Origin: a virus
Taxonomy: Duplodnaviria > Heunggongvirae > Uroviricota > Caudoviricetes
Strand: one strand, 5' to 3'
Virus record (IMG/VR): IMGVR_UViG_2645727669_000018
Length of the DNA: 43,235 nucleotides
This document shows, piece by piece, positions 1-43,235 of this stretch (positions are counted from its first letter, which is position 1; every line of letters begins with the position of its first letter). The notes under the pieces were generated by a model, which worked only from the letters and a program-made list of their open reading frames with translations, did not search any database and had not been told where the DNA came from. A program made the translations under genes and the position numbers.

Positions 1-1209
1 ATGTCGGTTTTTCATAACTGGCTGCTTGATATCGCAAGCGGGAATTACTTTATCTACATCAAACGCCTTTCTGCAAACGACACAGGCGCAACAGGTGGCC
101 ATCAGGTCGGACTTTATATCCCCTCAAATATCGTTGAAAAGCTTTTTCCATCTATCAATCATACTCGCGAACTGAACCCTTCAGTCTTCCTTACTGCGCA
201 TGTATCATCCCATGATTGCCCTGATACCCAAGCACGCGCAATTTATTACAACAACCGTTATTTTGGTAAGACCCGAAACGAAAAAAGAATTACGCGCTGG
301 GGGAGAGGAAGTCCATTACAGAACCCTGAAAATACAGGAGCCCTCACAATTCTTGCTTTCAGGTTAAACGAACAGAACACTGACTGTTCCGAGGTAGATA
401 TATGGGTCTGCGTCAATCCCGATGAAGAGGATATCATCGAGTCTGCTATTGGCGAAATCATACCTGGAACCCTAATTTCCGGCCCTGCCGGACAAATTTT
501 GGGCGGATTGTCTCTTCAGCAAACTCCAGTAAATCATAAATATGTTATTCCTGAAGACTGGAAGAAGCGTTTTCCTTCTGGAAACGAAATTATTCAATAT
601 GCTGCTGGCCATTATGCTAAAAACTCCAAGGATCCAGATGAGCAACTGATTGACCGTCGGCGTGTCGAGTATGATATTTTTCTACTCGTCGAGGAATTAC
701 ATGTTCTTGATATTATTAAGAAAGGATTCGATTCTGTAGATGAGTTTATTGCATTAGCCAACTCTGTCAGTAATCGACGTAAATCAAGGGCAGGTAAATC
801 ACTTGAACTTCACCTAGAGAAGCTTTTTATCGAGCACGGACTACGGCATTTCTCCACTCAGGCAGTTACTGAAGGTAATAAAAAACCAGATTTCCTGTTT
901 CCTTCAGCAGAGGCATATCATAACGTTGAATTTCCTGTAGAAAACTTACGTATGCTGGCAGTAAAGACCACCTGCAAAGATCGCTGGCGTCAGATACTGA
1001 ATGAAGCAGATAAAATCCATCAGGTACATTTATTTACGCTGCAAGAAGGTGTTTCTTCAGCACAATACCGGGAAATGAAAGATGCGGGTGTCAGACTCGT
1101 TGTACCATCAACTTTACATAAAAAATACCCAGAAGCAGTTAGAGAAGAATTAATAACGCTCGGAGCATTCATTACTGAGCTGATAGAACTTTACGCTGAA
1201 CTATCATAG
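1..1209 (+). CDS. ecoRIIR: Type IIE restriction endonuclease, EcoRII-like (CCWGG-type)
   Basis: 402-aa ORF beginning at window base 1; sequence recognised from memory as very close to EcoRII along its whole length (N-terminal effector domain plus C-terminal catalytic domain); convergent with a Dcm-type cytosine methyltransferase as in the EcoRII system. Not searched. Confidence 0.8.
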   Translation: MSVFHNWLLDIASGNYFIYIKRLSANDTGATGGHQVGLYIPSNIVEKLFPSINHTRELNPSVFLTAHVSSHDCPDTQARAIYYNNRYFGKTRNEKRITRWGRGSPLQNPENTGALTILAFRLNEQNTDCSEVDIWVCVNPDEEDIIESAIGEIIPGTLISGPAGQILGGLSLQQTPVNHKYVIPEDWKKRFPSGNEIIQYAAGHYAKNSKDPDEQLIDRRRVEYDIFLLVEELHVLDIIKKGFDSVDEFIALANSVSNRRKSRAGKSLELHLEKLFIEHGLRHFSTQAVTEGNKKPDFLFPSAEAYHNVEFPVENLRMLAVKTTCKDRWRQILNEADKIHQVHLFTLQEGVSSAQYREMKDAGVRLVVPSTLHKKYPEAVREELITLGAFITELIELYAELS

Positions 1210-1214
1210 GCTGA

Positions 1215-1237
1215 CTCCCGGCTTAAAAGGCCGGGAG
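1215..1237. terminator. Stem-loop between convergent R and M genes (possible bidirectional terminator)
   Basis: 8-bp inverted repeat ctcccggc/gccgggag with 7-nt loop in the 34-bp gap between the two stop codons; no clear T-tract. Confidence 0.35.
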
Positions 1238-1243
1238 GTGTTC

Positions 1244-2677
1244 TCAAGGCTGCCCAGTCTTACCAGCATCAGCAGAAACAGCTTTGAGGATATAGGGTTC
1301 CAGAAGTCTGGCAACGGCTTCAAATACTGGCACCACAACGGAGTTACCGAACTGCCGATATGACTGAGTATCTGAAACCGGAATACGGAATGGTTTCCCT
1401 CCAGGTTTTTCAAACCCCATAAGGCGTGCGCACTCTCGGGGAGTCAGCCTGCGTGGTCGACGAGCCTGGTTACTCTCATTCATAAAGTCAGCCTCTCCCG
1501 TTGCCATATCCCAACCACGATCAATAAGAATTTCTGATCCGTCTTTGTGATATCTGGCAGAAAGTGTGCGTGCAATGCTTTCCTTATTCTCAGGATTGAC
1601 CAACCCAAAGCCAAAACCATTCCCCTTGGCTGCATGCTTTTTGGCGTAGTTATAAAGGTACTCCCATAGTTTTGGCGTAAGTATATATTTACTGTCGACT
1701 ACAGGCTCCAGCAATTCACCAAATGATGGGCGGTGTTCCGGATAAAAACGACTGATATCACGCAAGGTAAACCCCTTGTGAATATTCAGATCTCGTCTAA
1801 ATCCGACCAGAACAATGCGTTCACGATGCTGAGGCAAAAAATGCTTCCCATCGATAATCTTTGGATCGTTTTTTCCCATTTCTGCAGCATCGGCAACTTC
1901 GTAGCCCAGCTCGTCAAGGGTCTCCATAATGACTTTGAAAGTTTTACCCTTATCATGGCTCTTCAGATTTTTGACATTTTCCAGCACAAAAATTGCCGGT
2001 TTTTTTGCTCGTATAATACGTGCCACGTCAAAAAAAAGTGTTCCTTGTGCTTCACATTCAAAACCATGCGCACGACCAAGTGAGTTTTTCTTACTAACAC
2101 CAGCAAGGCTAAATGGCTGGCACGGGAACCCCGCAAGAAGCACATCATGATCCGGCACATGCTCATCAATATATGCATAAGCATCCGTTTCCAATACATC
2201 GGTTTTATCACTCAGCGTGACTTCCCGAATATCGAGATTGAATTTATGCACCTGTTCATCGTTAAACCAGTTGGCCTTGTATGTACGCACAGCATCTTTA
2301 TTCCATTCACTGGTAAAAACACACTGGCCTCCAATGGCCTCAAAACCTTTCCGTATCCCTCCAATTCCAGCAAATAAGTCAATGAAGCGGAAAGCATATT
2401 CCGGATGGTTTGCAGGTGGTTCTGGTAGCATCTTACGCAGAAGAGACTCTTCTACTGAAGTCAACGATTTTGGTAAACACTTGCCATTAATCCAGCGGTT
2501 GATGGTTTCACGGCTCCACTCATTTTTTCCGACTTTTCTCAGTAATTCAGCCACATACTTCTGATCATAGATTTCCAGCACTTTCTCGATAAGCTTTTTA
2601 TCATTTTCCTGTCGCAGCTTTTCTTCCGCCTCGGCTTCCTTCAGCAGATGCTGTGCCAACACTTCAAATTCAGACAT
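1244..2677 (-). CDS. ecoRIIM: DNA (cytosine-5)-methyltransferase, M.EcoRII/Dcm-like
   Basis: C5-MTase motifs in translation: [10 protein letters not shown] (motif I), GFPCQPFS (catalytic Cys, motif IV), FVLENV (motif VI), QFGNSV (motif X). Start moved from ORF-track 2719 to ATG 2677, which has GGAGG 5 nt upstream and gives 477 aa. Confidence 0.9.
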
Positions 2678-2984
2678 AATTCCTCCAAGGGGTCTAATGG
2701 GTGAAACTCTATCACTCATTCAACCCAGAAGGAAATGTTTTATCTGGATATTTAAACAGTGACTACAACGTAATCTAGCACTGGTGATGCTTTGTTAGGC
2801 ATAGAGAATCATTCTATATACGACTAATGACAGAAAAACAGCAGACAAGTAGTTTGTTCATAAATTAACGCATACTACGTGCCTACGGTTTTCGAGACCG
2901 GTCCAATCATCAAACGAAACATAAAATTAGCTCACATTATGAGGAAAAGTATCTTTTTTGTACTATGTAAATTCAAAGGCTTAG

Positions 2985-3854
<870 letters not shown>

Positions 3855-3911
3855 GTCTTTAAGTGATAAGCATAAACCGCAGCACGATCTTGCATACGAC
3901 GTGCTACGGTT

Positions 3912-4466
3912 TCATTTATCTCCGACCGGAAACTTCTTATACAGTGTCGATATACCAACATCATAGATGATCGCCACCTTCTGGCGAGGAACGCCTGATG
4001 CAATTAATCGCCCGGCCTGCGCCCATTGTTCTGGTGTAAGTTTGGGACGACGTCCACCAATTCGTCCCTGTGCGCGAGCAGCTTCCAGTCCAGCTTTTGT
4101 TCGTTCAACAATCAGTTCTCGTTCCATTTCAGCCAGGGCACCCATCACATGAAAGAAAAAACGCCCCATCGGTGTGCTGGTATCAATAGCATCCGTCAGG
4201 CTGCGAAAATTAACGCCACGTTCGCGCAACTCCTCAACCAGAATGACCAGATGCCGCATACTACGCCCTAGCCGATCCAGCTTCCAGACAACCAGAGTGT
4301 CACCTGCCGATAATGTCCTGAGCAGTTTTTTCAATCCCGGCCTTTCGGACTTTGTACCGCTTATCTTGTCTTCAAAAATCAGCTCGCATCCTGCACAGTT
4401 CAGCGCATTACGTTGTAGATCTGTGTTCTGGTCATTTGTTGACACACGTACATAGCCAATAAGCAT
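3912..4466 (-). CDS. pin: Serine DNA invertase, Pin/Gin/Hin/Cin family
   Basis: MLIGYVRVSTNDQ...WKLDRLGRS serine-recombinase catalytic motifs and C-terminal HTH; 184 aa from ATG 4466 with GGGAG-type SD upstream; adjacent to an invertible tail-fibre segment. Confidence 0.9.
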   Translation of the reverse strand: MLIGYVRVSTNDQNTDLQRNALNCAGCELIFEDKISGTKSERPGLKKLLRTLSAGDTLVVWKLDRLGRSMRHLVILVEELRERGVNFRSLTDAIDTSTPMGRFFFHVMGALAEMERELIVERTKAGLEAARAQGRIGGRRPKLTPEQWAQAGRLIASGVPRQKVAIIYDVGISTLYKKFPVGDK

Positions 4467-4520
4467 GGTAGATCTCCCTGACAAAAGCAGGAATGATGCC
4501 ATTTGCTCGTTATTTCTGCA

Positions 4521-5695: not shown

Positions 5696-6354
5696 AATTT
5701 CCCAATTCCTAAAATATGGACATCATCAGCCTTACGGGCATTCCAGGTGACAATTACATCGGTAGAGTGACGATTAACTGAGATTGCGTATGCTTCGTTA
5801 GTCGAGCCAGAAACTTTTGTGGCAAACACAGCAAACAGGACACCAAATGACTGGGGCCATTTATAGCCTGACAGCTGATAATTACCATTATTCAGTGTTA
5901 CAGCTTTGGCTGCTGCACTTGATGGAATCGTCAGCCACTGGAGTATCAACCCTCCTGGCAAAAGTTGTTTTCCGTAATAATCCCTCACCCCACTAAATGA
6001 AACCATGTCCGGTATCTGATTTTCCCCTGTGCCCACATTCCGTTTTGCCGCTTCTCCCAAACCAAGGTTTTCGAGAGCCGTTTTCACCGTGCCATCCGAT
6101 TTGATATCGCTAAACGGATTCTTGCGGCTTAACAGCAGCGCACGAAGCGCGGTAAGCAGCTGGTCATGCCGCCCCTTCTCCAGGCTGGCACCGGATGCCT
6201 CCACCACGCTGCAGAGTTCTTCCTGCAACATATCAAAGTAGTCATCATCAAGATCGGTGGCAGGTGTGCCGGTCTGGGGGTTACCACGGGTAAAACCGTT
6301 TTTACCCGCGCCGAACTTATCCTTCTGCGCGGTTTTCGTGTCTATACGATGCAT
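5692..6354 (-). CDS. Side tail-fibre protein (constant N-terminus plus invertible C-terminus)
   Basis: 220-aa ORF spanning the recombination site at 6064/6065; N-terminal about 100 aa outside the segment, C-terminal about 120 aa inside; resembles e14/Mu-type short fibres (from memory). Confidence 0.75.
6052..6077. repeat. hix/gix-like 26-bp recombination site (fibre-proximal boundary)
   Basis: ttctcccaaaccaaggttttcgagag; core AAACCAAGGTTTT matches the hix consensus core (from memory); inverted relative to the site at 4521-4546. Confidence 0.65.
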
Positions 6355-38821: not shown

Positions 38822-38880
38822 TTATCAGGACTGGAATTTGATATTACTGCCCGTGTGCAGCGGGCTAAGTGGAGAAACAT

Positions 38881-39087
38881 ATGCTGAACCTCGATTGTGT
38901 TCCAATCTCAACTTATTGCAAAGAAACTGGCGAAACTCCTGAAGCAATAAACAAACGTGTACAGCGCGGTGTTTGGCGTGAAGGTGTTCAGGTTTTAAAG
39001 GTTGAAGGCGTTAAGGAGAGGTGGATTGATCTTAGTGAGGTTGCAAAATGGGCCAGACAAAACTGCTCAAACTACCGCGCGGCGTAA
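38881..39087 (+). CDS. xis: Excisionase-like protein
   Basis: 68 aa from ATG 38881 (GGAG SD); small basic protein overlapping the integrase start as in lambda xis-int. Confidence 0.55.
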   Translation: MLNLDCVPISTYCKETGETPEAINKRVQRGVWREGVQVLKVEGVKERWIDLSEVAKWARQNCSNYRAA

Positions 39088-40220
39088 CAATCAGGAAACA
39101 CCGCCTGGGCGAAACGATCAATATAACTTTCACCTATAAAGGAGTTAAATGTCGTGAGCCTCTTTCCAATCTGGAAGTAATACCAAAGAACATAAAATAC
39201 GCCGAGCGCACACTCGGCGAAATTCATAATAAGATCGAAAGGGGAACATTCATTTATGCGGAATATTTTCCCCGTTCTGCTCGTTTGAAAATTTTTGGTA
39301 ATGCTGCTGCAGGCAAAACGGTAAAAATGTACCTGGACGAATACCTTGAAATCTGCGAAACGAGAAAACTTTCACCCTCTACGATTGGTGGTTATAAAAA
39401 ATGCCGTAGTGCGTTAGCCTCACTCCACATTTGCCCTGCAAGTGAATTAACACCAGCAATCCTGAAAGCGTGGATTCAAAGCCAGAAAACGACCTTAAAA
39501 ACAATTCGCAACCAGTTATCTTTCCTGCGGTCAGCACTTGATGAAGCCGTAACCGATGGGGTACTTCAAATTAACCCCGTATCGTTGGTAACTGCTTCGC
39601 GCTACCAAAGTGATAAGTCAGAAGCAGAAAGCAGCTACGTGGTTGATCCGCTATCACCAGCAGAAGTTGATGCATTACTAGCAGCAGCCGGAAACAAACA
39701 ATGGGAAAATCTGTTCCGGTTCGCTATACATACAGGCCTGCGTAGTTCTGAATTATGTGCCCTTCGATGGCGTGATATCGACTTTGTTGGAAAAACTGCC
39801 CATGTCCAGAGCGCAAGTGTTGTCGGTGTTATCAAAGGGACAAAGACAAAAGCAGGTACTCGGAAAGTTGAACTGACAGAAGAGGCAATGTTGGCGCTGA
39901 TAAATCAGAAGCCATTTACATTCATGAAGGATGCTACTGTCTTTGAAGATCCAAAGACCAATAAGCCTTGGGCAAGTGCTGATGCAATTAGGAAAAAAGC
40001 ATGGGTGCCAACATTGCGAAAAGCAGGTATTCGTTACAGAAACCCATATCAAACCAGGCATACATTCGCCACCAGCCATATCAGCCGAGGAGCAAACCTG
40101 TTTTGGCTTGCAGCTCAAATGGGGCATAAAGGGCCGGAGATGCTTTTCAGGCACTATGGTTCGTATCTTAAAGAGTATGATAACTTTACATCGATAAATC
40201 ATTTGCATAATCATAATTAA
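39048..40220 (+). CDS. int: Tyrosine integrase (lambda Int family)
   Basis: 390 aa; C-terminal catalytic region with conserved Arg, HxxR-like and terminal Tyr context (RHTFATSH...LFRHYGSY). Confidence 0.9.
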   Translation: MGQTKLLKLPRGVTIRKHRLGETINITFTYKGVKCREPLSNLEVIPKNIKYAERTLGEIHNKIERGTFIYAEYFPRSARLKIFGNAAAGKTVKMYLDEYLEICETRKLSPSTIGGYKKCRSALASLHICPASELTPAILKAWIQSQKTTLKTIRNQLSFLRSALDEAVTDGVLQINPVSLVTASRYQSDKSEAESSYVVDPLSPAEVDALLAAAGNKQWENLFRFAIHTGLRSSELCALRWRDIDFVGKTAHVQSASVVGVIKGTKTKAGTRKVELTEEAMLALINQKPFTFMKDATVFEDPKTNKPWASADAIRKKAWVPTLRKAGIRYRNPYQTRHTFATSHISRGANLFWLAAQMGHKGPEMLFRHYGSYLKEYDNFTSINHLHNHN

Positions 40221-40261: not shown

Positions 40262-41041
40262 TTGATTACAATTACATTCGACAAACTAATCACCTACATA
40301 TCTTCAGTTGGTACTTTCATTTCAGCAATTGCTGCATTATATGCAATATGGTTAACGATATTTCAAAGAAGGCTCTCTTATAAACCCAATTTAGTGATAG
40401 ACACTTTAAATGTCAAGATGAATGTTAACGATTTCAACGGTTTTCATGTTGATATCTTACAAGCCCCTACGCTTCCACAAACAAAATTTTCAAACATAGG
40501 ATTGGGGGCGGCAATTTCACTTAGATATCATTGGGATTTTAATTATAAAAAAAACATAAATCTATACTTAGAGTTGTTTTCGAAAAAATTCAAAAAAGAA
40601 GATAAATCTTTTACAACCGACTCCCAGTATGGAATGTTCAAAATAATAAAAGAAAGAAAAGTATATATGTACAATACTTTATCGACACCTTACGATATTG
40701 ATTTTTCGTTACCATATAGTATAGATAAGAAGTCAAAAAACATTTTTGTACCAACCGCGGCAATTGATATTCTATTGAATATAGCATATCTTTCACATAG
40801 ACTTAAATTAGTCGGTTCTTCATCATTCACTGGTCCAAAATTAATTATTGAATATCAAGATATAGAGGGTAAAACTAAAAAAGTCACTTGGCAAACAAAA
40901 TTGGAACGTGGAGTGGCACGTTTCAGTGGTGATAATATGGAGGCAGATTTTGCACTACGGTTTACACCTGTACCAGAGAAATGGACTACAAAAGGTCTAG
41001 AGAAGATACGCAAAAGCGCCGCAAACGCCATGTTCAGATAA
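40262..41041 (+). CDS. Hypothetical membrane-anchored protein (AT-rich cargo between int and att)
   Basis: 259-aa ORF from TTG 40262 with N-terminal hydrophobic helix (ITYISSVGTFISAIAALYAIWLTIF); Lys/Asn/Ile-rich; no recognisable motifs. Confidence 0.55.
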   Translation: MITITFDKLITYISSVGTFISAIAALYAIWLTIFQRRLSYKPNLVIDTLNVKMNVNDFNGFHVDILQAPTLPQTKFSNIGLGAAISLRYHWDFNYKKNINLYLELFSKKFKKEDKSFTTDSQYGMFKIIKERKVYMYNTLSTPYDIDFSLPYSIDKKSKNIFVPTAAIDILLNIAYLSHRLKLVGSSSFTGPKLIIEYQDIEGKTKKVTWQTKLERGVARFSGDNMEADFALRFTPVPEKWTTKGLEKIRKSAANAMFR

Positions 41042-41071
41042 ATATATAATTAAAACAACAGGTTAATATTT

Positions 41072-41106
41072 TTCAGACACGGGTTCAACTCCCGCCAGCT
41101 CCACCA
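41072..41106 (+). other. ssrA: ssrA (tmRNA) 3'-terminal fragment / prophage attachment-site core
   Basis: 41081-41106 GGGTTCAACTCCCGCCAGCTCCACCA matches the tmRNA 3' acceptor/T-arm end as recalled; upstream similarity decays within about 10 nt into AT-rich phage DNA. Confidence 0.8.
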
Positions 41107-41152
41107 AAATTCTCCATCGGTGATTACCAGAGTCATCCGATGAAGTCCTAAG

Positions 41153-41186
41153 AGCCCGCACGGCGCAAGCCCTGCGGGCTTTTTTG
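41153..41186 (+). terminator. Rho-independent terminator (native ssrA terminator)
   Basis: agcccgca-(12 nt)-tgcgggct followed by tttttt, about 47 nt after the CCA end. Confidence 0.75.
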
Positions 41187-41310
41187 TGCCTTGAATTTGT
41201 CCCGCGAAGTCTGATGCCAACTAATTAAATCCGAACCTTTTAGGCACCTTGTTAGGCACCTCATAAAGCTTTATTGTTTTTGAGGTGCCTAAAACTATGG
41301 AAACCCGGCA

Positions 41311-41367
41311 ATGGCAAGACAAACCAAACCTCTATCCGTTAAAGAAATCGAATCTGCTAAACCCAAG
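41311..41367 (+). pseudogene. 5' remnant of a P4/CP4-57-type integrase gene, cut by IS insertion
   Basis: ATG 41311 encodes MARQTKPLSVKEIESAKPK, a typical P4-family integrase N-terminus; the frame then runs into IS sequence and stops after 18 unrelated codons. Confidence 0.6.

Positions 41368-43235
<1,868 letters not shown>

Follow-up and report, generated by a model that had tools for sequence, protein, structure and literature searches.

The window, by which we mean the whole stretch of 43,235 nt analysed here, begins exactly at the ATG of a restriction endonuclease gene and ends exactly at the start codon of the transposase gene istA. From left to right it contains the following features (coordinates, strand, description).

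1–1209, +: EcoRII-type restriction endonuclease, the first gene at the attL-proximal end (Pfam EcoRII-N and EcoRII-C; PADLOC REase_II).
1244–2719, −: C5 DNA cytosine methyltransferase, the EcoRII-type partner (Pfam DNA_methylase and DNA_meth_N; PADLOC MTase_II).
3030–3854, +: GIY-YIG protein matching the PD-T4-3 anti-phage defence model (Pfam LEM-3_GIY-YIG; PADLOC PDLC04031, E = 3e-139).
3912–38821, no single strand: prophage body (colinear with the annotated T43 prophage; structural genes akin to those of Sf phages).
38869–39087, +: small ORF overlapping the start of the integrase gene, a candidate excisionase judging from its position.
39048–40220, +: tyrosine integrase of the prophage, 390 aa, read toward attR (Pfam Arm-DNA-bind_2, Phage_integrase and Phage_int_SAM_5; PHROG 1).
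40262–41041, +: orphan cargo (moron) gene between int and attR, 32.7% G+C.
41042–41079, +: core-proximal P arm of the phage att site, 38 nt, 18% G+C.
41080–41106, +: displaced 3′ fragment of ssrA, the likely attR core, 27 nt, CGGGTTCAACTCCCGCCAGCTCCACCA.
41107–41310, +: left arm of a second, CP4-57-type island with an island-supplied terminator, recognized by comparison with K-12 and A25.
41311–41367, +: first 19 codons of the presumed P4-type integrase of that island, MARQTKPLSVKEIESAKPK, starting with the ATG at 41311 and cut by an insertion sequence.
41368–43235, −: IS100, IS21 family (Pfam IstB_IS21 and rve; annotated in A25 as IS100/IS100kyp).

The left end of the window (1–3854) is a defence cluster made up of the endonuclease, the methyltransferase, which is annotated as a 477-aa protein in comparator genomes (window 1244–2677), and the PD-T4-3 protein. 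Of 5426 complete E. coli genomes, 244 carry most of this module, and in the assembly collection >10,000 blocks are indexed as containing an identical EcoRII protein. The prophage body encodes a Pin invertase and tail-fibre module, a Mu-like baseplate, tail and sheath, an HK97-type head and a terminase, as well as lysis genes, an antiterminator, replication genes, cI/cro and early-left genes. The annotated prophage of T43 is colinear with it over 32.1 kb (91–98.5% identity). Its structural genes are ~97% identical to those of the Shigella phages SfII, SfI, SfIV and SfV, which match 57–74% of the query taken from this region (window 4500–28000, 23.5 kb). Judged by its sequence, the prophage looks complete. 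The gene for the Pin-type invertase (3912–4502, − strand) adjoins tail-fibre and tail-fibre-assembly genes that point in opposite directions, a layout suggestive of an invertible segment for host range. The tail-fibre region is the part that differs most, both between the window and T43 and among contigs sharing the EcoRII module.

The prophage ends on the right with its integrase module. The candidate excisionase assignment of the ORF at 38869–39087 is consistent with Citrobacter phage phiNP, in which the matching region underlies an annotated xis. Searches of Pfam, NCBIfam and PADLOC gave no family for the cargo gene; in the predicted model of its product, a long helix at the N-terminus, which probably serves as a membrane anchor, precedes an alpha/beta domain. 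When the DNA of int and cargo was used as a query, matches were obtained in 1071 complete E. coli genomes, 50 of which have most of int, cargo and core. No close match to the int–cargo–att module was found among sequenced phages, the best hit being phiNP with 83% identity confined to the integrase. Since no sequenced virion genome carries the integrase at >83% identity, the attP site of this exact phage is reconstructed rather than observed.

The 27 nt at 41080–41106 are identical, without a mismatch, to the last 27 nt of E. coli ssrA in annotated genomes. According to the Rfam structure line for the full gene, the T-stem is GCGGG/CCCGC and the T-loop UUCAACU, and the identical block opens at the second stem base. 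It covers T-stem bases 2–5, the 7-nt T-loop, the 3′ strand of the T-stem, the 3′ strand of the acceptor and ACCA; the block thus extends from the 5′ strand of the T-stem through the 3′ end of the gene, a recognized T-stem/T-loop sublocation. The fragment has the same orientation as the target gene, in agreement with T43 and with KB732762.1 (see below). No second copy of the core is present in the window, allowing up to 3 mismatches for the 27-mer and up to 2 for its terminal 15-mer, and none of 100 shuffled controls contained a core match. A full tmRNA or tRNA gene was detected in the window neither by ARAGORN nor by Rfam at the gathering score; a permissive Rfam scan returned a partial tmRNA (RF00023) match at 41031–41106 with 18 bits against a gathering score of 47 bits. 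Immediately upstream of the core, 7 of the 9 bases at 41071–41079 (TTTCAGACA) agree with ssrA (TTTCGGACG), and the similarity is gone further upstream. The two diagnostic P-arm bases, 41075 and 41079, are A in the window and G in ssrA. The original prediction, made from the sequence of the window, had described a perfect 26-nt tmRNA 3′ end 30 nt after the cargo gene. Perfect identity holds, and 30 nt separate the stop codon of the cargo gene, which ends at 41041, from 41072; the block itself measures 27 nt and lies at 41080–41106. The described fading of tmRNA similarity into AT-rich DNA agrees with the 7/9 identity followed by DNA of 18% G+C, and no full tmRNA gene lies just upstream of 41072 by either program. 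That prediction was silent on the prophage integrase at 39048–40220 and on the interruption of the P4-type integrase by IS100.

The P arm and the core are unchanged across ten genomic contexts of the cargo gene, and the sequence after CCACCA varies among them, being the native chromosomal arm, a CP4-57-type arm or the arm of another P4-type island. The junction of P arm, core and CP4-57-type arm is also present in public assemblies (L026, L027). Constant arms next to switching neighbours are what integrase-mediated recombination within the core would produce. In two contigs (L021 and L024, ~3781–3900) the attR core of the same prophage is shortened (...CCCGCCAGCCAATCATG...) by ~5 nt of the acceptor strand/CCA region, which may reflect decay of the displaced fragment.

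The flank to the left of the prophage lies outside the window, which seems to have been cut at gene boundaries and therefore misses the attL core expected 234 nt upstream. The presence of ssrA there was deduced from relatives, for which 12 contexts were inspected: VTB96816v, A29 and ten contigs encoding the identical EcoRII protein. Full-length ssrA ends exactly 234 nt before the EcoRII ATG (window position 1) in 10 of the 12; this 363-nt tmRNA gene is found at that spacing in VTB96816v and A29, the left modules of which are 99.6–99.7% identical to that of the window, and in 8 of the 10 contigs. Two further genomes display both ends of the element. T43 has, in this order, smpB, full ssrA, the prophage, int, cargo, the 27-nt fragment and an intact P4-type integrase, with 41,395 nt from core to core. 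GCA_000351625.1 (KB732762.1) encodes EcoRII and cargo proteins both identical to those of the window and carries the full tmRNA gene on the left and the fragment on the right, the cores being 41,117 nt apart. Among the ten contigs that encode the exact EcoRII protein, there is no identical match to the window, and the ten that encode the exact cargo protein all lack IS100 on their right side. The exact cargo–core–island–IS100 junction was found in no complete E. coli genome, T43 being closest, without the IS. By analogy with the relatives, the left flank of the window would read ...GGAATTTCGGACGCGGGTTCAACTCCCGCCAGCTCCACCA followed by ATCATGATTGGACGG..., ~234 nt before the EcoRII ATG.

Taken together, the unique core, the adjoining integrase and the comparisons with A25, T43 and KB732762.1 bear out the predicted integration of a prophage into the 3′ end of ssrA with its right junction here. 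We estimate at roughly 93% the probability that window 41080–41106 is the attR core of a ~41.3-kb SfII/SfV-type temperate myovirus that entered ssrA at its 3′ end and has the full gene on its left side. The locus would then be a tandem array at the E. coli tmRNA site, in the order ssrA (inferred to lie just left of the window), prophage and older CP4-57-type island.

The array might be longer, with a third element, such as a P4-like satellite, between full ssrA and the prophage, and a short fragment immediately left of the window. This is the arrangement in L012 and L017 (each ~5740–6000), two of the ten contigs that encode the identical EcoRII protein: they have a shorter 3′ fragment of ssrA at the usual spot, because a further element sits between the full gene and the prophage. 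The L012 element, which encodes AlpA, Ash and a primase, is a P4-like satellite, and L017 has another element. Both contigs represent arrays of three members, whose integrases differ in the length of the block that they use. As these 2 of the 10 contigs have a fragment instead of the full gene, the full gene could lie further left here as well, beyond a third element. With the gene directly adjacent to the prophage in 10 of the 12 contexts, we regard such an arrangement in the window as rather unlikely, and it is a variant of the preferred explanation, not a contradiction of it.

The DNA to the right of the core begins with AAATTCTCCATCGG..., continues with a hairpin and then with the P4-type integrase. 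The hairpin and its T-run (~41150–41185) have a folding energy of −25.1 kcal/mol (z = −3.5). The first ~85 nt from 41107, hairpin included, are identical to the DNA that follows ssrA in K-12, so that, with K-12 as the only reference, this side looks native and could be taken for the chromosome joined to a single prophage, with the ssrA terminator and a backbone integrase and without any array. That reading, which we consider highly improbable, was already refuted by the empty-site count and the layout of CP4-57 in K-12. Among 5426 complete E. coli genomes, 775 have a different trailer and terminator, ATCATGATTGG...GCCCGCTGATGCGGGCTTTTTT, joined directly to ssrA and followed by glaH; as these are empty sites with the arm right next to ssrA, this arm represents the native trailer and terminator. 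R12 and the ST131 strain THO-003 have the same int–cargo–core joined to that other arm (ATCATGATTGGACGG...AAAGCCCGCTGATGCGGGCTTTTTT), followed by glaH-lhgO-gabDTP. The annotation of K-12 assigns the window-type arm to CP4-57, which starts 15 nt inside ssrA, and the native arm is located at the far end of CP4-57, after a 14-nt ‘psaA’ fragment. The two arms are unrelated (82 of 172 aligned positions identical), and a P4-type integrase is in itself a gene of mobile elements. Since the right-hand arm is of the K-12 CP4-57 type and the native arm is elsewhere, the DNA downstream of the core belongs to a second integrated island. The predicted terminator and P4-type integrase start are therefore real, as a hairpin with a T-run and as 19 codons, respectively, but the former is not the native ssrA terminator, given the other sequence at the 775 empty sites, and the latter appears to be CP4-57-type island DNA, not backbone.

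The island is represented in the window by little more than its left arm, which is ~99.5% identical to that of A25. The DNA of the 19 surviving integrase codons is near-identical to the start of the T43 integrase, an intact homologue of 413 aa with Arm-DNA-bind_3, Phage_int_M and Phage_integrase domains that scores 931 bits against NCBIfam NF007246. The element interrupting the integrase belongs to the IS21 family, with istA (rve and HTH domains; 42213–43235, where the window ends at its start codon) and the helper ATPase gene istB (41434–42216) in tandem. The istB of the window has an in-frame TAG at codon 16 (42169–42171), so this copy of IS100 may be defective. In A25, which is free of the prophage, ssrA is followed by the same arm with the same IS100 insertion point. 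Alignment to this prophage-free ssrA locus, proposed in the original prediction as a check, gave 12 differences over window 41071–43235, two of which are the phage-specific bases 41075 and 41079. EPEC E2348/69 matches query positions 172–521, spanning the IS boundary, and this genome and others appear to share the insertion point of A25 and the window. The phage probably arrived after the island had been established and interrupted by IS100. The window contains two integrases, one full (39048–40220) and one truncated (41311–41367), and the prophage fragment doubles as the attL block of the island, its last 15 nt (41092–41106) being also the island's identity block.

This double use invites the proposal that the fragment is only the attL of the island and that the phage DNA arrived by an unrelated rearrangement or by an insertion that destroyed ssrA, with which the lack of a second core copy inside the window would also agree; it is barely credible, as the fragment reaches 12 nt past the 15-nt block, exactly to the start of the phage P arm, the same P arm and core adjoin native backbone in genomes without such an island, relatives keep full ssrA at the other end of the phage, and phage LMessi has the same core beside its integrase.

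The other arm of the reconstructed attP, P′, was read from the attL sites of relatives (L005, 3767–3925; L004, L003 and L009–L018), where an unvarying phage P′ arm comes after the host portion of ssrA and the core. This arm is a ~155-nt copy of the native trailer, with 144 of 161 aligned positions identical, and includes the terminator hairpin. Because the P′ arm brings its own terminator, lysogeny would regenerate both the tmRNA sequence and a terminator behind it. Lysogens at island-free sites have attL and attR sharing an imperfect direct repeat of ~180 nt that extends beyond the 27-nt core. In the window, the right arm is unrelated to the P′ arm, and the segment shared by attL and attR would thus be limited to 41080–41107 (28 nt), a limit that is blurred at island-free sites, where the P′ arm mimics the native arm. 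Strains carry mixed alleles of the P′ arm, suggesting that phage and host copies have recombined. Single-base differences were considered as fixed markers of phage versus native arms and dropped, since the far-end arm of K-12 and several attR arms carry mixed alleles.

A mechanism consistent with these comparisons can be proposed for the preferred reading, i.e. a prophage in ssrA followed by an older island. The attP of the phage would have the order int, cargo, P arm, core and P′ arm, and would carry the 27-nt tmRNA 3′ end, from the second T-stem base to CCA, plus the ~155-nt P′ arm. Recombination by the tyrosine integrase within the core would generate two junctions: attL, presumably just left of the window, in which the 5′ portion of the host ssrA would run through the core into the phage P′ arm, and attR, composed of the phage P arm, the displaced core and whatever had followed ssrA before. 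Here the latter would have been the arm of the older CP4-57-type island, the integrase of which had already been cut by IS100. Excision would restore an attB consisting of ssrA, the core and AAATTCTCC... (island arm). From the position of the block and the published sublocation classes (PMC4383910), we infer that strand exchange takes place in the T-loop.

Islands and prophages in the 3′ part of tRNA and tmRNA genes, with regeneration of the gene, displaced fragments and tandem arrays, are well established (PMC4383910), and the E. coli tmRNA locus is a documented hotspot for prophages of several groups, P4-like satellites and other elements (PMC10121019). The locus shares with the Islander tDNA elements (Hudson, Lau and Williams 2015, PMC4383910) the regenerated gene at one end (here in relatives), the displaced 3′ fragment in gene orientation, a tyrosine integrase inside the element near its end (39048–40220) and a block starting in the T-stem region. 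As in Islander tandem arrays, a second integrase, cut by IS100 here, adjoins the fragment, part of which would belong to its island; the far-end fragment of that island, for which ‘psaA’ is the K-12 equivalent, would lie outside the window, as does the full gene. There is no essential difference from these elements. The closest counterpart of the right-hand element is K-12 CP4-57 (intA, ssrA site), which has a P4-type integrase at the same distance and shares the 15-nt identity block. However, only 214 of 257 positions are identical over 41107–41362, the integrase variant of the window being nearer to those of T43 and A25, and in the window the integrase is cut after codon 19 by IS100, with the rest of the island outside.

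Relationships of the prophage itself depend on the module considered. The Sf phages use tRNA-Thr as their integration site, and their gtr genes lie between int and attP. The prophage shares with SfII, SfI, SfIV and SfV the terminase, the HK97-type head and the Mu-like tail and baseplate, whereas no match to any of the four was found for its int–cargo–att module. In place of the gtr genes there is the single gene at 40262–41041, which, having no Pfam family, is not a Gtr glucosylation gene. Conversely, Escherichia phage LMessi, which served as the unintegrated analogue, and the PhiR12_5 record have an integrase, an AT-rich P arm (...GGTTAA...TTCGGA(C/T)A), the identical 27-nt core and a terminator hairpin, but their integrase DNA has no detectable similarity to that of the window, they lack a cargo gene between int and core, and the P′ arm of LMessi is only loosely similar to the native arm. 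No literature on a named ST131 ssrA prophage was found.

The junction might also have a role at the RNA level. We saw no terminator between the cargo stop codon (41041) and the island hairpin (~41150–41185), so the 3′ UTR of the cargo mRNA would consist of the T-arm and acceptor fragment of tmRNA together with whatever terminator the neighbour supplies. That the fragment is not inert, giving rise to a small RNA derived from the att junction or to a 3′ UTR that depends on the neighbour, strikes us as improbable, as does, separately, the notion that the orphan cargo protein, with its probable membrane anchor, acts as a new factor in lysogenic conversion or exclusion. The Salmonella small RNA IsrM (RF02763) gave a match at 41097–41185 (+) with 32 bits against a gathering score of 376 bits; the alignment involves just the two ends of the 329-nt model, with ~250 positions missing, and covers the tail of the ssrA core and the terminator of the island arm. 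With such a score, identity with IsrM was rejected. By eye, the arms behind the core of L028 and of the PhiR12_5 record seem nearer to the IsrM 3′ end, a hint that in Salmonella IsrM may be located in a corresponding island arm; a literature search on the genomic context of IsrM yielded nothing useful.

The arrangement is ordinary and already understood, two-member tandem arrays being a known pattern; little here is new, and a textbook mechanism is confirmed. The right boundary of the prophage can be set at 41106/41107, and the left one is predicted ~234–260 nt before the window. What the analysis offers is a correct annotation of the window, in which the DNA right of 41106 is a second, disabled island and not the chromosome. 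For E. coli more generally, it indicates that the “ssrA terminator” of K-12 is supplied by an island, which makes K-12 misleading as a model of the native locus.
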